Below are positions 13,958 to 43,353 of a stretch of DNA of 64,000 bases, piece by piece (the stretch's first letter is position 1; every line of letters starts with the position of its first letter). The stretch is from Candidatus Aminicenantes bacterium. Lineage in GTDB: Bacteria > Acidobacteriota > Aminicenantia > Aminicenantales > Saccharicenantaceae. The notes below the pieces were generated by a model that worked only from the letters and a program-made list of their open reading frames with translations, was not told the origin of the DNA and made no database searches. The stretch is taken from positions 194,016 to 258,015 of the forward strand of contig CAVSEQ010000003.1 of assembly GCA_963727095.1 (NCBI GenBank). The letters are read 5' to 3'. The position numbers were made by a program, and so were the translations under genes.

Positions 13958-15378
13958 ATGGAACTGCGCAAGATCAACGAGATCACCTGGGAGATTCCCA
14001 AACAGGGGGACATGAACGTTCCGGCTCTCATCTATGCGTCCGAAAAGTTGTTGGCCGACGTGCGGCGTGACATGACCCTGACCCAGGCCCGGAACGTGGC
14101 CTGCCTGCCGGGAATCCAATGCATGTCATACGTCATGCCCGACGCGCACCAGGGGTACGGCTTTCCGATCGGCGGTGTCGCGGCCTTCGACCTGGACGAG
14201 GGTGTCATTTCGCCGGGCGGGGTCGGCTATGATATCAACTGCGGCGTCCGGCTGCTCCGGAGCGATTTCACGGACAAGGACGTCACGGAGAAACGCAAGG
14301 AGCTTTTGGCCGAAATTTTTCAAGAGGTTCCAGCCGGCGTGGGGAAAGGGGGCGTCACCAGGCTCACCCGAAAGGTCCTCGCGGACATTCTCGTCAAAGG
14401 CGCGGAATGGGCCGTGGAGAATGGGTACGGCACGCACGACGATCTCGAGCGGACCGAGGAATACGGCCGCATGAAGGACGCGGACCCGGCCGGACTATCC
14501 GAGCGCGCTTTGGAACGCGGCGTTCCCCAACTCGGCACGCTCGGCGCCGGCAACCATTTTCTCGAAATTCAAAAAGTCGTCGAGATTCAGGACAGGAACG
14601 CGGCCGACGCTTTCGGGATCACTTCGGTGGGTCAGATCCTGATCATGATCCATTGCGGCAGCCGCGGCCTTGGGCATCAGGTCGCGACGGACTTCATCGA
14701 ACTCATGGAAAACGCCTTTGGGACCAAGGGGCTGCCCGACCGCGAGCTGGTCAACGCGCCCTTTCGTTCCGCCCTCGGCCAGCGCTATTATCGTTCGATG
14801 TGCGGCGCGGTGAATTACGCGTTTGCCAATCGTCAAATGATTGCCCACTGGGTCCGCAACGTTTTCGCCAAGGTCATGGGAACGGCCGCCGGGATGGGGC
14901 AGATCTACGATGTCTGTCATAACGTCGCCAAGGTCGAGAAGCACGACTTGGGGGGCGCGCCGTGGATCTTTGCGTCCACCGCAAAGGCGCGACGCGCAGC
15001 TTCGGCCCGGGCCGGCCGGAGATCCCCGCCGCGTACAGGTCTATCGGCCAGCCGGTTCTGATTCCCGGCAGCATGGGGACGGCGTCCTATGTCCTGGTCG
15101 GCACCGCCGAGGCAGAACGGTTGAGCTTCAGCTCCACGGCCCACGGCGCGGGGCGGGTCATGTCCAGGCACGAAGCCATGCGGCGTTTCCGAGGGGAGCG
15201 CATCCGCGACGAGATGGCGGCCAGGGGGATCGAGCTCAAGGCGACGAGCTGGAAGGGCGTCGCCGAGGAAGCCGCCCCCGCCTATAAGGACGTGGACGAG
15301 GTCGTGCGGGTTTCCCACGAAGTCGGCCTCGGCCGGATCGTGGCGCGGCTTGTCCCCGTCGGCGTCATGAAAGGATAG
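13958..15378 (+). CDS. rtcB: RNA-splicing ligase RtcB, interrupted by an apparent -1 frameshift near 14950-14960 (poly-G run); N-part frame 2 to ~14955, C-part frame 1 from ~14962
   Basis: ORFs 13958..15061 and 14962..15378 are both RtcB ([24 protein letters not shown] | [23 protein letters not shown]); reading one extra G gives the expected ...[21 protein letters not shown]... Confidence 0.85.
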
Positions 15379-15548: not shown

Positions 15549-17150
15549 TTGAGGCTTGGAACCGACTCCTCGGTGGATTTGCGTCAGCGGGAGGCCGCTC
15601 TTTGCCCCGTTGACTTTTCGGACGGCCGTTCATATAAAGGATGCATGCGTGTCGTGCTGGCCGGATACAATGTGGACAGCTCCGTCCTCGAGGAACTAAA
15701 GAAGAACTCGCCGCCGCGCGACGATGTGACGCCGGAAACGCTCTCGGCGTCATACGCCCGCATCTCGAGAGACCCCCGTCCTGCCGACGAACTGAGGGCC
15801 GCGGCCCGGTCTGAGGTCGAACGGGCCCGCCGATCGAATGCGGCCATTATTTTTAAAATGGGCCATCATTCAGTGGCCGAGCATGCCGTTTTTAATTTCG
15901 ACATCATCGGGGTCAGCCGGCTGGCCATCGAGGAAATCGAACGATTCCGGCTCTGTTCTTTCACGGAAAAGTCGCAGCGCTATATCACGCTTGGAAGCGA
16001 TTTCGTGGTCCCCGCGGAGATCACGCGCGCCGGCAAGGCTAAGGTTTTCGTCGCGACCGTCAAGGCCCAGAACGCCCTTTATCACCGTTTGTTCGAAAAG
16101 CTCAAGCCTTTCTTTTTTGAGACGCACCGCGCGGAAGCGGCCGATCCGAGGAACCGGGCAATCCTCGAAGGCTGGGCCAAAGAAGACGCGCGCTACATCG
16201 TGAGCCTGGCGACGGAAGGCCAGCTCGGCATGACCATCAACGCCCGCAACCTCGAGCTTCTCATCCGGCGCTTTGCCGGCAGGAATAGCGACGAAATACG
16301 GGAGATCAGCGGCCGGATCGCCTCCTTGGCAAGGGAGGTGGCCCCTTCCATCATCCTGTTCACCGAGGCCTCTGAATTCGATGCCAAGACTCCCCTCGGC
16401 ACAGGGGCCGCCGTGTCCGCTCTTCTCCCGGCGGGCGGCTTTGCCCGCACCAGCCGGGCCTCTGCCCGCACGCCCGTGGCCCTGGCCGGCTGCACACCCG
16501 ATGGGGATGCGCAAATCCTCGCCGCCCTGCTCCACACGGCCTCCCATCTGAGCTACGATCAGTGCCTCCGAAGGGTGAAGAGGGCATCCTCGGCCGGCCG
16601 GCGCAACCTCGCCCGGAGCGCCTTCCGGCATATGGAGTTCTACGACTTTCCTCTTCGAGAATTCGAATACGCCGGCTTCCTGTTCGACCTCGTGGTATCG
16701 GCGTCGTGCTTTGCCCAGCTCAAGCGTCACCGGATGGCGACGCTGACCTGTCAAGGCTATGATCCCGCCCTGGGCGTCACTGTGCCGCCCTCGATCGAAG
16801 CCGTCGGCGCCGCGTCCGAATTCCGAGACTTGATCGGCCGCACGGATGACGTCCACGGCAGGCTCGCGAAAGAGGTCGGCCCGGCCGCCGATTATGTGCT
16901 GACCAACGCCCACCGGCGCCGGGTTCTCCTTGGAGTTAACGTGCGCGAGCTCTATCACATCTCCCGGCTCAGAGAGGATGCGACCGCGCAATGGGAGATC
17001 CGGAAGCTCGCGGCCGGGATGACGCGGCTGGCAAAAAAACGGATGCCGCTGGCCTGCCTGCTCCTCGGCGGAAAGGACGCCTATCCGGAAATCTACAAAA
17101 AGGTCTTCGGACGTCCGCCGCAAATGAAGCCGCCGAAGATGTTCAGCTGA
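15549..17150 (+). CDS. thyX: Flavin-dependent thymidylate synthase ThyX, tandem two-domain form (start possibly ATG 15645)
   Basis: Domain 1 SRLAIEEIERFRLCSFTEKSQRY (ThyX SQRY motif, RHR degraded to RFR); domain 2 LKRHRMATLTCQGY (RHR retained, SQRY degraded). Confidence 0.6.
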   Translation: MRLGTDSSVDLRQREAALCPVDFSDGRSYKGCMRVVLAGYNVDSSVLEELKKNSPPRDDVTPETLSASYARISRDPRPADELRAAARSEVERARRSNAAIIFKMGHHSVAEHAVFNFDIIGVSRLAIEEIERFRLCSFTEKSQRYITLGSDFVVPAEITRAGKAKVFVATVKAQNALYHRLFEKLKPFFFETHRAEAADPRNRAILEGWAKEDARYIVSLATEGQLGMTINARNLELLIRRFAGRNSDEIREISGRIASLAREVAPSIILFTEASEFDAKTPLGTGAAVSALLPAGGFARTSRASARTPVALAGCTPDGDAQILAALLHTASHLSYDQCLRRVKRASSAGRRNLARSAFRHMEFYDFPLREFEYAGFLFDLVVSASCFAQLKRHRMATLTCQGYDPALGVTVPPSIEAVGAASEFRDLIGRTDDVHGRLAKEVGPAADYVLTNAHRRRVLLGVNVRELYHISRLREDATAQWEIRKLAAGMTRLAKKRMPLACLLLGGKDAYPEIYKKVFGRPPQMKPPKMFS

Positions 17151-17164
17151 CCGGGTCAGAGGCG

Positions 17165-17195
17165 CAGCGCGTTGAGAAAAGCGCTCTATTTTTTC
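17165..17195. terminator. Weak bidirectional stem-loop (AGCGC-N10-GCGCT) followed by T6 between convergent thyX and the oxidoreductase gene
   Basis: Inverted repeat and T-run read in sequence. Confidence 0.35.
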
Positions 17196-17830
17196 AGCAG
17201 CTTAAAGGCGTGGTCCCAGGTATCGGTCCGCAGGCCGTAATAAACCCAGATCAGGCACAGCGGTTCGAGCAGCCTGGCGCCTTCGATCCCCCCGAGGTCG
17301 ACGACGCCCCAGCCGAACTGCTTCAGGATTCCGGCGACCTCCATTTTTGCCGTTTCGTCGTTTCCGCACATGAACATGTCGGGGGGACCGCACGGGAAAA
17401 CCGGCTTGAACATGTGGGCGTGGCCGACGGAATTGAAGGCCTTGACCACCCGCGACTTCGGCAGCCAGCGCTGGACGTGCTCACCGGCGGAATCGGTATG
17501 GCCTAGGACGAGCTCGGGGAAGGCATTCGGCGGATAGGCCAGCGGATTCGTGGCGTCGATGACAACCTTGTCCGCGAGGTTCCCGGCCCCGGCAAGCCGC
17601 AGGGCGTTCTCGGTGCCGTCCCAGCTCGTGGCAAGCACCGCCATCTCCGCAAACGCGGCCGTCTCCGCGTAAGTTCCCGCCGAGGCGCCAGGCCCGGCCT
17701 TCTTCAGCCACTCCTTAATTTCTTCCTTCTGAGGCGTGCGGCTGCCCATCTTGACGTCGTGGTTTAGCTTTGAAAAACCGAAGCCGAGAGCCTGACCGAC
17801 AGAACCGGAGCCCAGAATGCCTATTTTCAT
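17186..17830 (-). CDS. NAD(P)-binding oxidoreductase of the F420-dependent NADP oxidoreductase / NpdG-like family
   Basis: N-terminal Rossmann GxGxxG (MKIGILGSGSVGQALG); RBS GGAGGG upstream of ATG at 17830. Confidence 0.6.
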   Translation of the reverse strand: MKIGILGSGSVGQALGFGFSKLNHDVKMGSRTPQKEEIKEWLKKAGPGASAGTYAETAAFAEMAVLATSWDGTENALRLAGAGNLADKVVIDATNPLAYPPNAFPELVLGHTDSAGEHVQRWLPKSRVVKAFNSVGHAHMFKPVFPCGPPDMFMCGNDETAKMEVAGILKQFGWGVVDLGGIEGARLLEPLCLIWVYYGLRTDTWDHAFKLLKK

Positions 17831-17850
17831 CTTACCCTCCGCGTTGTGAT

Positions 17851-17875
17851 TTGAACGACATGTCGTGACATTCAA
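17851..17875. promoter_or_regulatory. Palindromic operator-like site TTGAACGACATGTCGTGACATTCAA 20-45 nt upstream of the oxidoreductase start
   Basis: Outer TTGAA/TTCAA inverted arms and perfect inner 10-bp palindrome CGACATGTCG. Confidence 0.3.
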
Positions 17876-17942: not shown

Positions 17943-18590
17943 TCAGGGAGTCGGCTCGAGGATGAAGACGCGGCGTCCGCGGACTTCGAGCCAGCCTTCG
18001 AAATAGAACCGGACCGCTTGCGGGTAGATCCGGTGCTCCTCGACAAGAATGCGGTCGGCGAGATCGTCGGCCGTATCCTCCTGGAGAAGCGGCACCGCGG
18101 CCTGAAGAATGATCGGGCCCATATCGACCTCGGACGTTACAAAATGCACCGTGCATCCTGATACCCGGACGCCCCAGTCGACGGCCTGTTGGTGGACGTG
18201 GACCCCCGGAAACGCGGGCAGCAGGGCGGGGTGGATGTTCATGATGCGGTACTTGAAGGCGTCGCAGAATTCGCGCGTGAGGATCTTCATGTATCCGGCG
18301 AGGCAGATGAGATCGATATCACGCTTCTCGACTTCGTGTCTGACCATCTGATCGTAGTTCTCTTTCGAAGCGAATTTTTTAGGGTCGAGGAACACGGTGT
18401 CGAGTTCCATCTCCCGGGCCTTGAGCAACCCGGGAGCATCGGGCCTGTTGCTGAAGACCAACGCGATATCCGCGTTGACGTCCCCGCGGTTCATGCTTTC
18501 GCAGAGCGCATTGAAATTTGTTCCCCGGCCGGAGAGAAAAACGGCGACGCGGCCTCTTTTTTTTGGACTGCGAAAAACGACATCTTCCAT
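17943..18590 (-). CDS. purN: Phosphoribosylglycinamide formyltransferase
   Basis: Formyl transferase fold with conserved N...H...D catalytic triad (HPALLPAFPG). Confidence 0.9.
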   Translation of the reverse strand: MEDVVFRSPKKRGRVAVFLSGRGTNFNALCESMNRGDVNADIALVFSNRPDAPGLLKAREMELDTVFLDPKKFASKENYDQMVRHEVEKRDIDLICLAGYMKILTREFCDAFKYRIMNIHPALLPAFPGVHVHQQAVDWGVRVSGCTVHFVTSEVDMGPIILQAAVPLLQEDTADDLADRILVEEHRIYPQAVRFYFEGWLEVRGRRVFILEPTP

Positions 18591-18599
18591 GAGCCCCCC

Positions 18600-20799
<2,200 letters not shown>

Positions 20800-20810
<11 letters not shown>

Positions 20811-21543
20811 GGCGGGCCTTTTTCGGGATCGCGCCGGCGGCGGCGGAGCGGCGGCCATTCAGGCTGCGGATGATGGATTCGAAAATGACGCGGCCGTCCT
20901 CGCTGCCGAGAAGGGCTTCCGACGCCCGTTCGGGATGCGGCATGAGCCCGAGCACATTGCCTTCCTTGCTCATAAGGCCCGCGACGTTGTGAAGAGAGCC
21001 GTTGACGTTGGCCTCTTCCGTGATACGGCCGTCGGAGTCACAATACCGGAAGACGATGCGGCGTTCGCTTTCAAGCGTCCTCAGCGTCTGCGGCGGAGCG
21101 TAGTAGTTGCCGTCGAAATGGGCGATGGGAATGCGCAGGACCTGGCCCTTTTTGGCGGCCCGGCTGAAATCCGTGCCGGCGTTCTCGACACGGATGTGAA
21201 CGTGCTGGCATAAAAACTTCAGGTTCTTGTTCCTGAGCATCGCTCCCGGAAGAAGGCCCAGTTCGAGCAGGATCTGAAAGCCGTTGCAGATGCCCAGGAC
21301 GCGGCCGCCCCGGCGGGCAAAAGCCCTGACCTCCTGCATGAGAGGGGAGAAGCGGGCGATGGCGCCGGCCCGCAGATAGTCGCCGTACGAAAAGCCGCCG
21401 GGCAGGACCACGCAGTCCACGTTCTGCAGGTCGTGGTCCTTATGCCAGAGCAGGACCGTCTCCTGCTTCATCGTGTTCTTGAGCGCGTGAAAGGTGTCGA
21501 GATCGCAATTTGATCCGGGGAACTGAACGACGCCGAATCTCAT
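20800..21543 (-). CDS. purQ: Phosphoribosylformylglycinamidine synthase glutamine amidotransferase subunit PurQ
   Basis: Class I GATase with GICNGFQ catalytic Cys. Confidence 0.95.
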
Positions 21544-21547
21544 GGGG

Positions 21548-21802
21548 TCAGCGCGGCTTCGCGGGAATGACCTGCCAGGTGTATTTTTCGATGATCGGGT
21601 TGGCCAGGACCTTGTGCGCGATCTCGGGGACCAGGGCTTCGGCGTCCTTCCTGCTGACCCCTTCGAGTTCGAGCTCGAAAACCTTGCCTTGACGGACCTC
21701 CCGGATGGCGCCGTAACCCATCGTGTGGAGGGCGTTTTTCACGGTCTGGCCTTGGGGGTCGAGCACGCTGTCCTTGAACGAGACGAGGATTCTAACTCTC
21801 AT
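21548..21802 (-). CDS. purS: PurS subunit (84 aa)
   Basis: [21 protein letters not shown] typical PurS start; internal Met of ORF 21548..21871. Confidence 0.85.
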
Positions 21803-23093
21803 CGGCGAGCACCCTTTCAAAGATATAATCGATCTTGGCGAGATAAGGGTCCAGGGAGAAACAGGCCGCAATCTGTTCCCGGGACAGGGTCTTGACGATG
21901 TCAGGATCGGCGGCGACGAGACCCGGAAAATCCCGTCCTTCGTTCCAGGCCTTGAGGCTGTTGCGCTGGACGACCTGGTAGGCGTCCTCGCGGGTCATCC
22001 CATTCTTCGTCAGGGCCAGCAATACACTCTGCGAGAAGATGAGGCCGCGCGTGGCGTCGATATTGGACGTCATCCTGTCGCGATGGACCGACCAGTTCTT
22101 GATGATGTCCACGATTTCGGCCAGAAGGAAGTCGGTTACGATGAAGGAATCCGGGAAGACGATGCGCTCAGCCGAAGAATGGGAGATATCCCGTTCGTGC
22201 CAGAGGGCGATATTTTCGAGACCGACCTGGGCATTGGCCCTGACGAGGCGGGCCAGCCCGGAGATGCGCTCGCACCGGACAGGGTTCTTCTTATGGGGCA
22301 TGGAGGAGGATCCCTTTTGGCCTTGGGTGAAAGGCTCCTCGACTTCGAGGACTTCGGTCCGCTGCAGGTGGCGGATCTCGATGGCGAACTTTTCGATCGA
22401 TGTCGCCAGCAGGGCCAAGACTGAAAGAACCTCGGCGTGCCGGTCCCTTTGCAGAACCTGCGTCGAAACCTTGGCCGGGCTGAGCCTGAGTTTTCTGAGG
22501 GCCATGACTTCGACCCTCGGATCGAGGTGGATGTACGTTCCAACGGAGCCCGAGATCCTGCCGACCGAAATCACCTCGCGGGCCCTTTCGAGGCGCGCGA
22601 TGTGGCGCTTGATCTCCTCGTACCACACGAGGATTTTGAAGCCGAAGGTCACCGGCTCCGCATGGACGCCATGGGTCCGGCCGATGCATACGGTCCGCTT
22701 GTATTTCAGAGCCTCCCTCCTGAGGAGCCGCTGGAGGTCCCGGGTCTGGGCCAGGATTTTATCGAGCGATTCCTTGATCAGGAGAGACAGGGCCGTATCC
22801 ACGATGTCGTACGAGGTTAGGCCGACGTGGATGAAGCGGGATTGGGGGCCGACGTTCTCCGCCACGGAAGTCAAGAAGGCGATCATGTCGTGTTTGACGA
22901 CTTTTTCTATCTCGTCGATTTTCTCGACGGAGAAGGCGGCTTTGGCCTGAATCACCCTGAGGGCGGACTTGGGGATGCGGCCGAGCCTGGCCCAGGCTTC
23001 GCAAACGGCGAGCTCGACAGCGAGCCATTTTTTATACTTATTTTCGTCTGTCCAGACAGCTCCCATTTCAGGTCGAGTGTAGCGGTCAATCAT
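21792..23093 (-). CDS. purB: Adenylosuccinate lyase
   Basis: Fumarate-lyase family signature GSSSMPHKKNP. Confidence 0.95.
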   Translation of the reverse strand: MIDRYTRPEMGAVWTDENKYKKWLAVELAVCEAWARLGRIPKSALRVIQAKAAFSVEKIDEIEKVVKHDMIAFLTSVAENVGPQSRFIHVGLTSYDIVDTALSLLIKESLDKILAQTRDLQRLLRREALKYKRTVCIGRTHGVHAEPVTFGFKILVWYEEIKRHIARLERAREVISVGRISGSVGTYIHLDPRVEVMALRKLRLSPAKVSTQVLQRDRHAEVLSVLALLATSIEKFAIEIRHLQRTEVLEVEEPFTQGQKGSSSMPHKKNPVRCERISGLARLVRANAQVGLENIALWHERDISHSSAERIVFPDSFIVTDFLLAEIVDIIKNWSVHRDRMTSNIDATRGLIFSQSVLLALTKNGMTREDAYQVVQRNSLKAWNEGRDFPGLVAADPDIVKTLSREQIAACFSLDPYLAKIDYIFERVLADES

Positions 23094-30492: not shown

Positions 30493-33400
30493 ATGCTAAG
30501 AGAAACAAAACATTCGTATCGCGACAGGGTCGACTTTTCGAAGATCAAACAAGTCTTCCCGATGCCCGACCTCCTGGACATCCAGACCCAATCCTATGCA
30601 GAATTTCTGCAGATGGAACTCCTGCCGGAAGAGCGGAAAGAAACCGGCCTGCAGGCCGCTTTTAAGGACGTCTTTCCCATCTCCGATTTCAAGGAAACGA
30701 CGGAACTGGAGTTCCTCAGCTATTCGATTGGGACCTGGGAATGCAAGTGCGGTCGGCTCAAGGGGGTGGAAAACTCCCGCGCCCGATGCAACGCCTGCGG
30801 GACCCTGTTGCCCGCGGACACGGAGCTCACCGAAAAAGAGATCTGTCCCTACTGCAGCGCGATGCGGAAAATCGAAGTCCCCCTCTGCGACCACTGCGGC
30901 GACCGGGTGGGACTCAAGATCAAGTACAATGCCATGGAGTGCATCCAGAAGGGGTATACCTACGCCGTCCCCCTCAAGCTCAAGGTGCAGCTGGTATCCT
31001 GGGAAAAGGACGCCACCACCAAGACCAAACGGCTGAAACACATCAAACAGCAGGAAGTCTATTTCGGCGATATTCCGCTGATGACGGAGAAGGGGACATT
31101 TATCTTCAACGGCATCGAACGGGTCGTGGTCAGCCAGCTCCAGCGCTCGCCCGGAGTGTTCTTCCGGCCCGCCGACAACAAAGGCTTCTTCATCGCCAAG
31201 ATCATCCCCTACCGCGGGGCATGGGTCGAGTTCGAATACGATACCAAGAATATCCTCTGGGTCCGCCTCGACCGCAAGAAGAAGTTCCTGGCGACCGTTT
31301 TCCTCCGGGCCCTGGGGTTCGGATCGGACGAGGACATCCTCAAGCTGTTCTACCGGACGTATAAGGTCATTCCCGAGGACGGGAAGCTGTATTGGGAGCT
31401 TTCGGAGAATCTCGTGGGCAAGACGCCCGCCGACGACATCATGGATGCCAAAGGCAAGAAGGTCCTCGCTCCGGGGAAGAAAAAAATCACTCCGGAGGTC
31501 TTCCAAGCCCTCAAGGATGCGGGCATCGGGCGGCTGCCGCTCCAGAAAAAGGAGCTCCAGGGCGCCTATGCCATGGTCGGCATAAAGGGCAAGGTCCGCG
31601 TCAACGAGGAAATCGGCGACGTTCAGCTCGATCTGCTGATCGGCAAAGCGGAGCCCTTTGAGGTCTTCTTCCCCGAGGAGGACAAGGCTGGACAAATCAT
31701 CTCCGCGACACTCCGCAAGGACCTTCGGAAGGATACAAACCAAGCCCTGGGCGAGATTTACAAGAAACTGAGGCCGGGTGAGCCCCACACCATGGAGAGC
31801 GCCCATAACCTCTTCCATAACCTGTTTTTCAACCCCCAGAAGTACAACTTCTCGCGGATCGGACGCCTCAAGTTCAACATCAAACTCGGCCTGGAAACGC
31901 CGATGGATGAGAAAACGCTCTCGCCCACGGATTACGTCCAGGTCATTTACTACCTCTTGAATCTCCGCTTCGGCGAAGGCATGACCGACGACATCGACCA
32001 CCTCGGGAATCGCCGAGTGCGGTCCGTGGGCGAGCTCGTCGAGAATGCCTTCCGGATCGGCCTGACGCGCATGGAACGGACGATCAAGGAGAAGATGACG
32101 ATCACGGCCGACCTGGCCGCGGCCATGCCTCAGGACCTCATCAATTCCAAGCCGGTGATCGCGGCCCTTAAGGAGTTCTTCGGGAGTTCCCAGCTCTCCC
32201 AGTTCATGGACCAAATCAACGCCTTGGCCGAGATCACGCATAAACGGCGCCTGAGCGCCTTGGGACCGGGCGGTCTCAGCCGTGAGCGGGCGGGCTTCGA
32301 GGTCCGCGATATCCAGACATCCCACTACGGACGGATTTGCCCCGTCGAGACGCCGGAAGGTCCGAATATCGGACTTATTTCGTCCCTCAGTTGCTACGCG
32401 CGGGTCAACGATTTCGGTTTCGTCGAAACGCCTTACCGGAAAGTCAAGAACGGCCGGATCATCGATTACGTCAAAGTCCTCCACCCCGGCAGCACCGGCT
32501 ACAAGGTCGGGGAAATTGTCGAGAAAGACGAGATGGTGAAAGCCGTCGACAAGATCAAAGAGTCCAAGTCCCGGCACGTGCCCATCATCGAACCCCATTG
32601 TTTCTACCTGACCGCCTGGGAAGAGGAAAAATTCAACATCGCCCAGGCTAACGCCCCCGTCGACGAAAAGGGCCGTTTCGTCAATGATCTCGTGAGTGCG
32701 CGGGAACGCGGGAATTTCAAGAACATCCCGAGGGACCAGATCCACTTTATCGATGTTTCACCCAAGCAGCTGGTGTCCCTTTCGGCCGCGCTCATTCCTT
32801 TCCTGGAGCACGACGACGCCAACCGTGCCTTGATGGGGTCGAACATGCAGCGGCAGGCCGTGCCCCTTATCCGGCCCGAGGCGCCCCTCATCGGGACGGG
32901 CATCGAAGACCTGGTCGCGATCGGCTCGGGAGACGTCATCGTCTGCCAGAGGACCGGCGTCGTCGAGTTCGTCGACGCCGAACGGATCCTTGTCCGGGTC
33001 GATGAGAAAGACAATGCGCACAGCTACGAGGTCGGGACGGATTTGTACGTGCTGGTCAAGTTCCTCCGGACCAATCAGAACACGTCGACGAACCACCGGC
33101 CGGTCGTCCGCAAGGGCGATAGAGTCATCAAAGGCCAGGTCCTGGCCGACAGCTCATGCACGGACGGAGGGGAGCTGGCCCTGGGACGCAACGTCCTTTG
33201 CGCTTTCATGCCTTGGCGTGGATACAACTTTGAAGATGCCATCATCGTCAGCGAGCGCCTGATCAAGAACGATATTTTCACCTCCCTCCACATTGTGGAG
33301 GAGACGATCGAGGCCCGCGACACCAAGCTCGGACCCGAGGAGATCACCCGGGACATTCCCAACGTGCCCGAAAATCTGCTCCGCAATCTCGACGAGAACG

Positions 33401-34775
33401 GGATCGTGCGCATCGGGGCCCATGTGAAGTCCGGCGATATTCTGGTCGGCAAAGTCGCTCCGAAGGGGGAGACGCAACTGTCCCCGGAGGAAAAGCTCCT
33501 CAAGGCGATCTTCGGCGAGAAGGCGCTCGACGTCAAAGATGCCTCCCTTTACTGCTCGCCGGGGGTCGAAGGAACGATCATCGACGTCCGCATCTTCTCA
33601 CGCCGCGGCATCGAGAAAGGCGCCCGGGCGAAGGCCATCGAGAAGGACGAGATCGCCAGGATGAAAAGAAACCTGGATGACGAGATCGTCATCATGGAAA
33701 ACGAGAAGTGGCAGAAGGTCCGGGCCCTCCTCAAGGGCGAGGTCGTCGAAAAAGCACAAAAGATCGGCGGGGCGGCCGTGGAAAAAGGGGCCAAACTGAC
33801 CGAAAAGATCCTGGAGGGACTGACCTTCGAAGAGGCCCTGAAGCTTAAGCTGAACGATAACGAAGAGCGCGACAAGGAGATCAAAGACCTTGACAAGAAA
33901 GTCAAGAGGCAGATCGAAGCCCTGCGCGCGGTCTTCAAGGACAAAGTGGAGAATCTGAAGAAAGGGGACGAGCTCGCCCCCGGCGTTATTCAGTCGATCA
34001 AGGTCTTCATCGCCATGAAGCGGAAGCTGTCCGTGGGCGACAAAGTTTCCGGCCGCCACGGGAACAAAGGCATCGTGGCCAAGATCGTCCCTGAAGAGGA
34101 TATGCCTAGACTGCCCGACGGCACCCCGGTGGAGATCGTGCTCAACCCGTTGGGTGTTCCCTCCCGAATGAACGTCGGCCAGATTCTCGAAACGCACGCC
34201 GGCTGGGCCGCCCGGACCCTCAACATGTGGATGTCCACGCCGGTCTTCGACGGCGCCAGCGAGCACGAAATCAAGCTGCTCCTTAAGAAGGCCGGCCTGC
34301 CTGAATCCGGGAAGACGCTGCTCTATGACGGCATGGCGGGGGAAATTTTCGACCAGGAAGTCACCGTTGGTTACATCTACATGATGAAGCTCTATCATCT
34401 GGTCGATGACAAGATCCACGCCCGGTCGACCGGTCCGTACTCGCTCATCACCCAGCAGCCCTTGGGCGGCAAGGCCCAATTCGGCGGGCAGCGGTTCGGC
34501 GAAATGGAAGTATGGGCTCTGGAGGCCTACGGCGCGGCGTTCACACTCCAGGAGCTTCTGACCGTCAAGTCCGACGACGTCGAAGGCCGAGCCAAGATCT
34601 ATGAGGCTATCGTCAAGGGCGACCTCGACTTCACTCCCGGCCTGCCCGAATCGGTCAACGTCCTCATCCGCGAGCTCCAGAGCCTCTGTCTGAACTTCGA
34701 GCTCGAGAAGGGCGAGAAGGAAGAAGTCCTGCCCTGGGGCATCGCCGTTCCCCAGACGACAAAAGGAGAATCCTA

Positions 34776-34776
<1 letters not shown>
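30493..34776 (+). CDS. rpoB: DNA-directed RNA polymerase subunit beta (1427 aa) with ~65-aa Cys8 insertion near the N-terminus
   Basis: Full-length beta conservation ([14 protein letters not shown], rifampicin-region motifs); insertion CKCG...CNACG...CPYC...CDHCG at ~30733-30935. Confidence 0.97.
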
Positions 34777-38924
<4,148 letters not shown>

Positions 38925-38959
38925 ACCAGGGCCGAGGGCTCCGGACCTCCTCAAATTTC

Positions 38960-38988
38960 TTGACAGAGATAGCAATTTTTGCTATTAT
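38960..38988 (+). promoter_or_regulatory. Sigma70-type promoter of the str operon: TTGACA (38960-38965), 17-nt spacer, TATTAT (38983-38988)
   Basis: Near-consensus hexamers ~80 nt upstream of rpsL. Confidence 0.55.
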
Positions 38989-39066
38989 CCACACATTCGT
39001 CCTCGGACTATCTACCGCGGAGGAATAAAGCTACCCTGTGAAATTTGCATAGAGGAGTATTTTTAA

Positions 39067-39453
39067 TTGCCGACCGTTAACCAACTCGTCAGGAATGGCA
39101 GGACGCTGAAGAAGTACAAGAGCAAATCGCCCGCCCTTGAGGCCTGCCCTCAGAAGCGGGGGGTCTGCACGCGCGTATTCACGACAACTCCCAAGAAGCC
39201 GAATTCAGCCATGCGGAAGGTGGCCAGGGTGCGGTTGTCCAACAATATCGAAGTCACAGGCTACATCCCTGGCGTCGGACACAATCTCCAGGAGCATTCG
39301 ATTGTCCTGATCCGGGGGGGCCGCGTTAAGGACTTGCCCGGGGTGCGCTATCATATCATCCGCGGCACCCTGGACTGCGAAGGCGTTCAGAACCGCTTCA
39401 AGGCGCGTTCCCGGTATGGTGCCAAGAGGCCCAAAGAGAAAAAGGCCGCCTGA
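39067..39453 (+). CDS. rpsL: 30S ribosomal protein S12 (TTG start)
   Basis: PTVNQLVR...KKPNSA(L/M)RKV conserved S12 sequence. Confidence 0.95.
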
Positions 39454-39469
39454 TATAAGGAGATCTCCC

Positions 39470-39940
39470 ATGCCGAGACGCGGAATCATCAAGAAAAGAA
39501 AAACGCCTCCCGATTCGTTCTTCAACAGCACCGTTGTCGCCCGGTTCATCAACCTCTTCTTAAGGAAGGGGAAAAAGAGCACGGCCGAGCGCGTCGTCTA
39601 CGGAACGATGGAGATCGTCAAGCAGAAGACGAAGGAAGACCCCCTGAAGATGCTTGAGAAGGCCGTCGATAACGTCCGGCCCACGCTCGAGACAAAGTCA
39701 CGGCGGGTCGGCGGCGCGAACTACCAGGTTCCGATCGAAGTTCCGGCCGGGCGTTCGTTTTCCCTTGGCGTCCGCTGGCTGATCAAGTATGCCACGGAGC
39801 GGAGCGGCAAGAGCATGCAGGAAAAGCTCTCGGCCGAGATCATCGACGCCATCAACAACAGGGGTGGAGCGGTTAAAAAGCGGGAGGACACTCACAAAAT
39901 GGCGGAGTCCAACCGGGCCTATGCTCATTATAAATGGTAA
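39470..39940 (+). CDS. rpsG: 30S ribosomal protein S7
   Basis: MPRRG...ARFINL...KKSTAERV conserved S7 N-terminus. Confidence 0.95.
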   Translation: MPRRGIIKKRKTPPDSFFNSTVVARFINLFLRKGKKSTAERVVYGTMEIVKQKTKEDPLKMLEKAVDNVRPTLETKSRRVGGANYQVPIEVPAGRSFSLGVRWLIKYATERSGKSMQEKLSAEIIDAINNRGGAVKKREDTHKMAESNRAYAHYKW

Positions 39941-39993
39941 TTTGCGGTTAAGAGTTCCTCGGGTGCATTGGTACGATATGGAGAGAATGGTTC

Positions 39994-42093
39994 ATGCGGT
40001 CAACCTCGATCGAGCACGTGCGAAACATCGGGATCATGGCCCATATCGATGCCGGGAAGACCACCACGACGGAACGAATTTTGTTTTTTACGGGTATGAC
40101 CTACAAGATGGGAGAGGTGGACGACGGCACGGCCGTAATGGACTGGATGGTCCAGGAGCAGGAACGCGGGATCACCATCACTTCGGCCGCGACGACGTGC
40201 TATTGGAAGGACCACCGGGTCAATATCATTGACACTCCCGGTCACGTAGATTTCACCGCGGAGGTTGAGCGCTCCCTGAGAGTGCTCGACGGCGCGATAG
40301 CCATACTGTGTGGAGTTGGAGGTGTCGAGCCTCAGTCCGAGACGGTATGGCGCCAGGCCGACAAGTATCGGGTGCCCCGCATCGTGTTCATCAATAAGAT
40401 GGACCGGGTCGGGGCCGATCCCGAGAGGGCCATTCATCAGTTGAAGGCCCGGGTGGCGGCCAACCCCCTGCCGGTCCAGATTCCCATCGGACGGGAAGAC
40501 GGCTTCCGCGGCGTCATCGATCTCGTCGAGAGAAAGGAAATCGACTGGGGTCAGGACATCCTGGGGACAAACTATGTCGTCCGGGATGTCTCGGACGAAC
40601 ATCGTGAGGATGTTGAGAAGAAGAGACAAGAGATGCTGGAAATGTTGAGCGAAACCGACGATGCGCTTTTGCAGAAGTATCTCGACGGCGTCGAAGTGAC
40701 GCCGGCCGAGATCAAGGGCGCCATCCGCAAGGGCACGATCGGTCTGCGCTTTGTTCCGGTGCTCTTCGGCGCTTCCTTCCGGAATAAGGGGGTCCATCCG
40801 CTTCTCGACGCCATTGTCGACTACCTGCCCTCTCCGGCGGACGTTCCGCCCGTCGTCGGCCATCACCCCAAGACCGGCGCGCCGGAAACCCGGCCGGCCT
40901 CGGATGATGCGCCGTTTTCCGCGCTTGTCTTCAAAATCATGAACGACCCGTTCATCGGCAATCTGGCCTATTTCCGCGTCTATTCGGGCAAAGCCAAGGT
41001 CGGGCAGCCGGTCTGGAACTCGGCCAAGAACGAGGAAGAGAAGCTGTCCCGCCTTCTCGAGATGCATGCGAACAAGCGGAAGGAAGTCCGGGAAGTCTAT
41101 GCCGGGGATATCGCGGCCATGGGCTCCATGAAGAACATCGCGACGGGCGATACGCTCTGCCTCAAGAACCATCCTTTGGTTCTCGAATCCATCCGGTTCC
41201 CCGAACCGGTCATCGCGGCGACCATTGAGCCGAAGACCAAGGCCGACCATCCCAAGCTGGCCACGGCCCTTACCAAGCTGACCCGCGAGGACCCGACGCT
41301 GCGCGTGGTTCAAGACCCCATGACCGGCCAAACACTCCTCCGGGGCATGGGCGAGCTCCACCTCGAGATCGTCATGGACCGCCTGGAGCGGGATTTCGGG
41401 GTTCGGGCCAACCTGGGAAAGCCTCAGGTCGCCTACAAGGAAACCATCCAGACCTCCGCCGAAGGAGAGGGCAAGTATGTCCGTCAGGCCGGCGGCCGGG
41501 GAATCTACGGACACTGTGTCCTGGCCATCGAGCCGCTGAAGCGGGGAGCCGGCTACGAATTTGCCGACCGCACGCGCGGCGGAATCATCCCGAGGGAATT
41601 CATTCCGGACATCGAGAACGGTGTGCGGGAAGCGATGGAGTCCGGGATCGTGGCCGGATATCCGCTGACGGACATCAAAGTTGTTTTGCTCGACGGGTCG
41701 TATCATGAAGTTGACTCGACCCCGGTCGCCTATAAAATCGCGGCATCGCTGGCCTTCCGGGAAGCCGCCGGCAAAGCCAACCCGGTCATGCTCGAGCCGG
41801 TTATGAGGCTCGAGATCGTGACACCCGACGACTACTTCGGCGACATCGTCGGCGACATCAATGCCCGGCGCGGGAAAATCGACGGCATGGAGATGCGGAG
41901 CGGCTCGCGGGTGCTCCGGATCCTGGTCCCGCTGGCCGGGATGTTCGGGTACGCGACGGCCCTCCGGACCCTGACCCAGGGACGGGGGGTGTTTTCCCTG
42001 GAGTTTTCCCAATACGAGAAAACCCCGCCCCAGGTTCAGGACGAAATCGTGGCCCGCGTCGAGGGACGCATTCCCCATCGGGATCATGCCTAA
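39994..42093 (+). CDS. fusA: Elongation factor G
   Basis: [21 protein letters not shown]-domain start and five-domain length (699 aa). Confidence 0.97.
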
Positions 42094-42147
42094 CATGAGT
42101 GAGAACGTCATGAACGTTTTAAACAACGCAACGCCAACAGGAGGTGT

Positions 42148-43353
42148 GTGATGGCGAAGGAAAAGTTTCAGAGGACGAAACCCCACGTCAACGTCGGGAC
42201 GATCGGTCACATCGATCACGGCAAGACCACGCTGACCGCAGCCATAACGAAGGTCTTGGCGACAAAAGGCCTGGCCCAGGCCAAGACCTATGATGAAGTG
42301 GCCAAGGCCGACGCCAAGATGTTCCGGCGGGACGCGACGAAGATCCTGACGGTGGCTCTCAGCCATGTGGAATACGAGACGGAGCACCGGCACTACGCCC
42401 ACATCGACTGCCCGGGTCACGCGGACTACATCAAAAACATGATTTCCGGCGCGGCCCAGATGGACGGCGCCGTGCTCGTGGTCTCCGCGGCCGACGGCCC
42501 CATGCCTCAGACGCGGGAGCATATTCTCCTGGCCCGCCAGGTGAACGTGCCGGCCATCGTCGTGTTCATGAACAAGTGCGACCTGGTGGACGACCCCGAG
42601 ATCCTGGACCTCGTCGAGCTCGAAGTCCGCGAACTCTTGACAAAATACCAGTTCCCCGGGGACAAGATTCCGATCATCCGCGGCAGCGCGACAAAGGCCA
42701 TGGAAGACGTCAACGGCGAGGCCGCCAAGCCGATCTGGGACCTGGTCAATGCCATGGATACGTTTATCCCTGAGCCCGTCCGCGAAGTGGACAAGCCGTT
42801 CCAGATGGCCATCGAGGACGTGTTCTCGATCACGGGCCGCGGCACCGTCGTGACGGGCCGGGTCGAGCGGGGCGTCGTCAAGGTCGGCGACGAAGTCGAA
42901 ATCGTCGGACTGCGCGAAACACGCAAGACGATCGTGACCGGCGTCGAAATGTTCCGCAAGCTGCTGGATCAGGCTCAAGCGGGCGACAACATCGGCTGCC
43001 TCCTGCGCGGCGTCGGGAAGGACGAAGTCGAACGAGGGCAGGTCCTGGCCAAGCCCGGATCCATCACCCCGCACCGACGGTTCACGGCGGCGATCTTCGC
43101 GCTGACGAAGGAAGAGGGCGGCCGCCATACGCCGTTCTTTAAAGGCTACCGGCCCCAGTTCTATTTCCGGACGACCGACGTGACGGGCTCCGTGAAGCTT
43201 CCGCCGAACGTCGAGATGGTCATGCCGGGCGACAACGTCACCCTCGAGATCGAACTCATCACCGACGTGGCCATGGAGAAGGCCCTGCGGTTCGCCATCC
43301 GTGAGGGCGGCCGGACCGTGGGCGCCGGAACGGTCGCCGAGATTCTGGAGTAG
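42148..43353 (+). CDS. tuf: Elongation factor Tu, copy 2, with divergent, 5-aa-longer switch-I region
   Basis: [21 protein letters not shown]; residues ~48-72 read [29 protein letters not shown] instead of the canonical [10 protein letters not shown](K/R)xRGITINxxHVEY present in copy 1. Confidence 0.93.

Follow-up and report, generated by a model that had tools for sequence, protein, structure and literature searches.

A tandem-domain ThyX from Candidatus Aminicenantes with a predicted division of one composite active site between its two halves

A stretch of 64,000 nucleotides from Candidatus Aminicenantes bacterium (assembly GCA_963727095.1, contig CAVSEQ010000003.1, positions 194,016 to 258,015; hereafter the window) was found to encode a 501-residue ThyX, the flavin-dependent thymidylate synthase, in which two ThyX domains (D1 and D2) are joined in one chain. 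Neither domain carries the full set of active-site residues, and each keeps what the other has lost. Judging from the alignments, this complementary loss divides the whole active site and holds throughout the family, reaching beyond the two short motifs in which it is most easily seen. The protein probably works as a thymidylate synthase, each dimer having two complete sites; we infer the assembly, the number of sites, and the activity from the conserved residues of the family.

Two ThyX domains in one chain

The tandem thyX open reading frame (ORF) spans 15549-17150 on the forward strand. Translation likely starts at the ATG at 15645, as an AAGGA sequence lies 5-9 nt upstream of this codon and the homologues likewise open with MKV/MRV..LAGYN. 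When the whole protein was compared with Pfam PF02511 (Thy1), two stretches were matched (198.9 bits, E=9e-59); when each half was scanned separately, D1 scored 123.7 bits and D2 79.7 bits, both above the gathering cut-off of 24.8 bits. This two-domain match is far above chance level and agrees with the initial annotation of this DNA, in which a protein of ~500 residues with two ThyX-like domains had been described. The NCBIfam equivalog model for thyX (TIGR02170) returned 127.5 bits against a cut-off of 87.9. The D1 and D2 profiles were also found to align with one another (96-97% probability, ~26% identity), with the D1 profile matching ThyX of Mycobacterium tuberculosis (Mtb) at E=5e-16 and the D2 profile matching ThyX of Thermotoga maritima (Tm) at E=2e-8.

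Structure prediction of the fusion, which the initial annotation had proposed as a check, gave a confident two-domain model with the ThyX fold (AlphaFold with 117 homologues; mean predicted local distance difference test [pLDDT] 95.9, predicted template modeling score [pTM] 0.93). The packing of D1 against D2 is confidently predicted, and confidence drops internally only in the linker (about residues 261-280), where the means of two 10-residue blocks were 71 and 80. The top 50 Foldseek matches in the PDB were all single-domain ThyX chains, with a template modeling score, TM(target), of ~0.7 and E-values down to 9e-11. No tandem ThyX was present among the PDB matches obtained by sequence or by Foldseek; since all of the matched chains have 270 residues or fewer, it appears that no tandem ThyX has been solved.

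Distribution of the active-site residues between D1 and D2

The contiguous signature RHR-X7-S(-x-R-Y) occurs in neither domain. Instead, D1 carries RFR-X7-SQRY and D2 carries an RHR followed by a shortened CQGY loop, and the translation reproduces exactly what had been annotated for each half, namely a degraded RHR with SQRY kept in D1 and RHR kept with a degraded SQRY in D2. To read these differences against the family, conservation was counted over 138 diverse tandem representatives with 38-52% identity to the query; an alignment of 117 sequences (A1) gave the same picture. Residues were mapped by aligning D1 with Mtb ThyX, D2 with T. maritima ThyX, and D1 with D2, and all of these alignments were concordant. 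The complementary degeneration was found to extend across the 138 representatives, and neither a single Thy1 domain nor complete motifs in both halves, the two outcomes that the initial annotation had named as contrary to it, was observed in the window protein.

D1 is the more conserved half, with 34 positions conserved at 97% or above versus 15 in D2, and with pairwise identities of ~58-62% for D1 and ~48-53% for D2. Its substrate loop is intact: E108, S110, and R112 were present in all 138 representatives and Y113 in 134, while the spacing of the loop (S110-Q-R112-Y113 at 15972-15983) from the RxR motif is identical to that of Mtb ThyX. H74 was likewise invariant, S76 was found in 133, and the arginines at positions 92, 183, and 201 are listed with their counterparts in Table 1. 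Relaxation of D1 is centered on the first two residues of the RHR motif, as position 100 is an arginine in 25 and position 101 a histidine in 40 of the 138 representatives, with the full RHR in only 5. F101 is invariant in the close clade, and elsewhere the position is occupied by H, S, R, or T; R102 was kept in 137. D1 also has no Gln equivalent to Tm Q180. Loss of the Tm R174-type arginine from D1 was considered and then dropped, as a pairwise alignment had placed F210 at this position and the profile alignments placed R209 there (with a one-residue deletion); position 209 is R or K in 101 of 138, and is here regarded as relaxed.

In D2, the RHR motif is invariant, R434 was found in 136 representatives, and R443, Q449, and W450 in 137 each. 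The loop that follows the RHR is degenerate. A two-residue deletion takes out the equivalents of Tm N85 and E86, position 369 is a serine in 11 and position 371 an arginine in 5 of the 138, Q370 is often retained, and Y372 is present in 134. Aspartate (D416) occupies the position of the dUMP-phosphate arginine Tm R147 (dUMP, deoxyuridine monophosphate), and position 353, the equivalent of Mtb R87, is A or S. At positions 336 and 338, placed opposite Tm H53 and T55 by ungapped extension, D2 has no conserved His or Ser; position 338, where canonical enzymes have the Ser that binds the phosphate of flavin adenine dinucleotide (FAD), is an arginine in 132. A near-invariant basic cluster was also noted in D2, comprising R338 (16656-16658), K360 (16722-16724), and H423-R424-R425-R426 (16911-16922), for which neither canonical ThyX nor D1 has an equivalent.

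The family comparison refines the initial annotation in three respects. By the alignments, the H-to-F change in D1 is clade-specific, and the R-to-G change in D2 is private to the window protein within its clade, in which the 120 nearest homologues have xQRY; across the wider family, position 371 is unconstrained. In addition, because D1 R102 is invariant, the degenerate D1 motif is less than fully relaxed. These observations bear on whether RFR and CQGY might simply reflect a decaying or mis-assembled gene. The private glycine at 371 would fit such a view, as would the frameshift of the adjoining RtcB gene at a run of six G residues, which points to at least one indel in the assembly or in the genome. 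Against it, the thyX ORF runs uninterrupted over its full length, the close clade has RFR without exception, the family as a whole shows no constraint at position 371, and the window protein has all of the invariant family residues together with a very confident AlphaFold model. Decay is thus highly improbable, and the comparison across the family in effect refutes it.

When the two halves are pooled, the residue set of a canonical site (Tm H53, T55, R78, H79, R80, E86, S88, R90, Y91, R147, R165, and R174) is complete by sequence. Four of its members are supplied by D2 (R361, H362, R363, and R443) and eight by D1 (H74, S76, E108, S110, R112, Y113, R183, and R201), each with 96-100% conservation. 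This partition follows the subunit roles known from single-domain enzymes, in which, as the initial annotation had pointed out, the sites are built at subunit interfaces from residues of different protomers; RHR and SxRY of one site belong to different protomers (PMC6514825, PMC5003785). In ThyX of Mtb and Helicobacter pylori, the RHR and R199 (Mtb numbering) come from subunit A and bind FAD and dUMP; S71 and R190 of subunit B bind the FAD phosphates; and R87, S105, R107, and Y108 of subunit C form the dUMP loop (PMC6514825). Similarly, PolB binds its dUMP through R82, H83, R193, and Q206 from one monomer and through E94′, S96′, R98′, and R166′ of its neighbor (PMC5003785); the grouping of R166′ with the residues of the SxR loop assigns the Tm R147-type arginine to the subunit that carries the SxRY loop. 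The helix that carries H53 in T. maritima ThyX belongs to 'monomer-3' (PMC11940539). Alignment to the single-domain enzymes assigns the role A residues to D2 and those of roles B and C to D1. Because both parts of one canonical site come from different subunits, the presence of RHR and SxRY contiguously on one chain is a diagnostic convenience and not a functional requirement.

The composite site also bears on whether the protein could be a ThyX-fold methylase for another substrate, such as uridine monophosphate (UMP), as in PolB, or another nucleotide. ThyX paralogues of altered specificity do exist, PolB among them (PMC5003785). However, the score for the TIGR02170 equivalog exceeds its curated cut-off, every canonical dUMP-contacting residue is invariant in the composite site, and the gene has a housekeeping context and a very wide distribution with no surrounding biosynthetic cluster. 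A change of substrate is therefore considered very unlikely.

Table 1. Features of the tandem thyX gene and their positions in the window. Counts refer to the 138 tandem representatives.
Feature	Position	Strand	Basis
Tandem thyX gene (501 aa + stop)	15645..17150	+	ORF list, translation, Pfam Thy1 in two stretches, TIGR02170
D1, first Thy1 domain (residues 29-235)	15729..16349	+	Pfam 123.7 bits, E=1e-35; keeps substrate-loop and third-subunit residues
D1 H74-H75-S76 = Tm H53/T55, Mtb S71 (third-subunit role)	15864..15872	+	Alignment to Mtb GHFSVLEH
D1 R92 = Mtb R87 (dUMP binding)	15918..15920	+	138/138; alignment
D1 degraded RHR (R100-F101-R102)	15942..15950	+	Translation; conservation counts
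D1 intact substrate loop E108-K-S110-Q-R112-Y113 = Tm E86, S88, R90, Y91	15966..15983	+	Counts, alignment
D1 R183 = Tm R147 / Mtb R172 (dUMP phosphate)	16191..16193	+	137/138; alignment
D1 R201 = Tm R165 / Mtb R190 (FAD phosphate)	16245..16247	+	136/138
Inter-domain linker (~residues 261-277), Ala/Gly/Arg-rich	16425..16475	+	AlphaFold confidence dip; sequence varies, with gaps, in alignment A1
D2, second Thy1 domain (residues 299-468)	16539..17048	+	Pfam 79.7 bits, E=3e-22; keeps RHR / R174 / Q180 side
D2 intact RHR (R361-H362-R363) = Tm R78-H79-R80	16725..16733	+	138/138 at all three positions
D2 degenerate, shortened loop C369-Q370-G371-Y372	16749..16760	+	Translation; alignment
D2 D416 at Tm R147 position (dUMP-phosphate Arg lost)	16890..16892	+	R/K in 1/138
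D2 NxR...R...AQW block: R434 (Tm R165), R443 (Tm R174), Q449-W450 (Tm Q180-W181)	16944..16994	+	Ungapped match to Tm

Predicted assembly and the second pair of sites

We propose that an ancient duplication and fusion gave rise to two ThyX-fold domains that share out the composite active site. D2 would provide the RHR, the Tm R174-type arginine, and the Gln of the AQW block, which canonically come from the FAD-holding subunit and also touch dUMP. D1 would provide the E..S.RY loop and the arginines of the Tm R147 and Mtb R87 type (canonically from the neighboring subunit), and also the Tm H53/T55/R165-type residues, the H53 type having the third-subunit role in canonical enzymes. As a canonical site draws on three subunits, and as the role A residues are invariant only in D2 and those of roles B and C only in D1, a complete site would consist of one D2 and two different D1 domains. 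The need for two different D1 domains per site would in turn require the chain to pair as a homodimer, forming a D1(2)D2(2) pseudo-tetramer whose true two-fold axis relates D1 to D1 and D2 to D2. In place of the four equivalent sites of the homotetramer, two sites of this pseudo-tetramer would be fully canonical, and the other two would be vestigial pseudo-sites with D1 in role A and D2 in roles B and C. That the composite-site residues converge in three dimensions is what we infer from their mapping onto the canonical enzymes. In searches by tblastn with D1, D2, and an E. coli (Escherichia coli) ThyA sequence, neither a thyA nor a second thyX was detected in the 64-kb window or in the flanks of 80 related loci.

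Several points weigh against this two-site arrangement. First, like domains could instead be paired across the A-C relation, which is one of the three 222 placements; this candidate would make four half-defective sites and leave the invariant residues pointless, and it was rejected solely by the argument that invariant residues should converge. Second, residues of the supposedly dead sites are strongly kept, including D1 R102 (137 of 138) and D2 R434 (136), Y372 (134), and R338 (132), and position 209 of D1, opposite Tm R174 in the profiles, remains basic in 101. In view of the strong conservation of R102, R434, Y372, and R338, the second pair of sites may be more than simply vestigial.

One account of this conservation is that the pseudo-sites were repurposed to hold a ligand with a phosphate group, for example a structural FAD, NAD(P)H (nicotinamide adenine dinucleotide, with or without its phosphate), or the polyglutamate tail of the folate, so that two sites of the enzyme would be catalytic and the other two auxiliary or regulatory. 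This account is consistent with the conserved residues just listed, which are predicted to line the pseudo-sites, and with the basic cluster of K360, H423, R425, and R426 in D2, which canonical ThyX lacks; moreover, NADP+ can take the FAD site of Mtb ThyX (PMC6514825). Conservation of the arginines may, on the other hand, be structural, or these side chains may extend into the adjoining functional site, as the two FADs of an A-B subunit pair lie ribose to ribose (PMC6514825). We regard repurposing as the leading alternative, but as unlikely. A narrower suggestion from the same residues, similarly unlikely, is that the pseudo-sites might form a new pocket (D1 R102 with D2 R338, R434, Y372, and K360/H423/R425/R426) for a second dinucleotide or reductant, NAD(P)H or FAD. 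If so, this pocket would be a dedicated electron-donor or allosteric site for ThyX that is missing in the homotetrameric enzymes.

It was also considered that all four sites are catalytic, with other residues compensating for the changes at the RHR position of D1 and in the loop of D2. D1 does retain R102, and its position 209 is usually basic, while D2 retains Y372 and often Q370; furthermore, Ser88 of T. maritima ThyX is known not to act as an essential nucleophile, and a structure of the S88A variant exists (3G4A). Compensation would, however, have to overcome the two-residue deletion in the D2 loop and the lack of any loop-side arginine in D2 for binding the phosphate or uracil of dUMP, as positions 353, 371, and 416 vary freely (P, D, N, A, G, and E), a signature of lost constraint. 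Four working sites are accordingly judged unlikely, and two complete sites per dimer remain the arrangement that we favor.

Should the two-site pseudo-tetramer prove correct, the three subunit roles would reside on distinguishable domains, and each could be tested by single mutations. Dissection of these roles in a homotetramer is hard, as it needs mixed-mutant complementation. The site at which ThyX binds NAD(P)H is a further question to which the tandem class is relevant.

Family distribution, genomic setting, and comparison with known systems

Within a very large subfamily that is already annotated, counting more than 5,000 protein clusters, the window gene is unremarkable. A protein 100% identical to its product is present in NCBI/ENA (P0001, on a contig of 808 kb), and a word-indexed protein search returned 5,280 matches, the best 120 of which are all ~500 residues long with 68-73% identity and come from metagenome-assembled genomes (MAGs) of the Aminicenantes and Terriglobales type; where names are given among these 120, they are flavin- or FAD-dependent thymidylate synthase. 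When cluster representatives at the 50% identity level were searched exhaustively, 426 clusters were found at E<=1e-30, and nearly all of the best 150 of these matches are 450-570 residues long and aligned across the whole query. Tandem ThyX was detected in at least 586 genomes in a scan of one genome per species, including Aminicenantes, Omnitrophota, Syntrophales/Smithella, Elusimicrobia, Margulisiibacteriota, Auribacterota, and others. DPANN archaeal MAGs (Nanoarchaeota and Woesearchaeota) also carry it at ~41-44% identity (P0158 and P0253), and the class thus spans the bacterial-archaeal divide, presumably by gene transfer. A natural split of D1 and D2 into separate genes was sought in two candidates and rejected in both: in P0237 (MAG GCA_023228195.1), which resembled a lone D1 with a second Thy1 gene after it, a scaffold gap of ten Ns falls in the linker (locus L081, 3751-3762) and the split is an artefact, and in P0141 the gene is cut by the end of the contig.

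The surroundings of the gene appear to be a housekeeping region of the core chromosome. The thyX gene is flanked by RtcB upstream and, by Pfam, by purN, purL, purQ (purQ-like), and purB downstream, with the purine-biosynthesis run located at 17943-23093 on the reverse strand; the large ORFs at 30493-43353 on the forward strand match rpoB, rpoC, fusA, and tuf in size and order and are putatively assigned to these genes, with putative ribosomal-protein genes also in the vicinity. Clustering of neighbors across 81 loci revealed no constant partner gene, only synteny at the level of the clade (RtcB upstream, purN/purL downstream). The RtcB RNA ligase gene (13958-15378, forward strand) lies in two frames, as ORFs of 367 and 138 residues, with the break near 14948-14957 at a G6 homopolymer (TTGGGGGGCG). 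Its homologues in related loci are intact at ~473 residues, and the split is either an indel introduced by assembly, as often seen with long reads, or the mark of a true pseudogene. Converging on thyX is a gene for a member of the NADP oxidoreductase family (17186-17875, reverse strand; 58.8 bits with Pfam F420_oxidored), which ends 36 nt past the thyX stop; it was not among the neighbor families conserved over the related loci, and no functional link is suggested. A 417-residue ORF also runs antisense inside thyX (15870-17123, reverse strand). Long antisense ORFs are common in DNA of 60% GC, and nothing pointed to a gene here, though no database was searched with it.

The built-in asymmetry of the tandem subfamily appears to be under-described, as no description of tandem ThyX or of its asymmetry was found in the open-access literature, including ThyX reviews and phylogeny papers. 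This has a practical side: motif checks for RHR-X7-S would call each half defective, and the family should not be taken for pseudogenes. The chlamydial ThyX (CT632 of Chlamydia trachomatis) is ~529 residues long and thus about double length, and it may belong to the tandem class. Griffin et al. (2005, J Biol Chem 280:5456; cited in PMC2386288) are said to have characterized CT632, and if it does belong to the class, activity has already been shown. Ten cluster representatives of ~525-540 residues were inspected for a chlamydial link, and none is chlamydial; two are proteins from DPANN archaeal MAGs that bear the name FAD-dependent thymidylate synthase. As ThyX is a drug target, the asymmetry would matter for inhibitor modelling if the chlamydial enzymes fall in this class.

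Each half of the tandem protein has the fold of canonical ThyX, represented by T. maritima TM0449 (1O26), Mtb Rv2754c (2AF6/3GWC), and the H. pylori enzyme (3N3Y). Once the halves are pooled, the same FAD-, dUMP-, and folate-side residue set is recovered, and the same principle, one site built from three subunits, would apply. The tandem chain differs from the canonical enzymes in having two copies that have diverged to ~26% identity, neither with the full RHR-X7-S-x-R-Y, and in being predicted to form a homodimeric pseudo-tetramer with two complete sites instead of a homotetramer with four. PolB, the UMP/dUMP C5-methylase of polyoxin biosynthesis, is likewise a homotetramer of the ThyX fold, and its two-monomer geometry of nucleotide binding was used above for the assignment of roles (PMC5003785). 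Unlike the tandem protein, PolB has a single domain and is encoded within a biosynthetic cluster; PolB is further marked by its specificity loops 1 and 2, with their tyrosines (PMC5003785). The tandem protein shows no hint of such a role. Compared with PolB by genomic context, the tandem gene has housekeeping neighbors and no conserved cluster. The tandem class offers a clean and very widespread case in which an enzyme whose active sites are shared between subunits was duplicated and fused, with complementary loss in the two copies. A parallel is found in the monomeric dUTPase of herpesviruses, in which the trimeric dUTPase fold has been duplicated and fused and the copies have lost complementary motifs. 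The logic is the same, in that a homo-oligomer with shared sites was fused, motifs were lost in a complementary manner, and fewer sites resulted; the fold and reaction are unrelated, and the likeness is one of analogy only.

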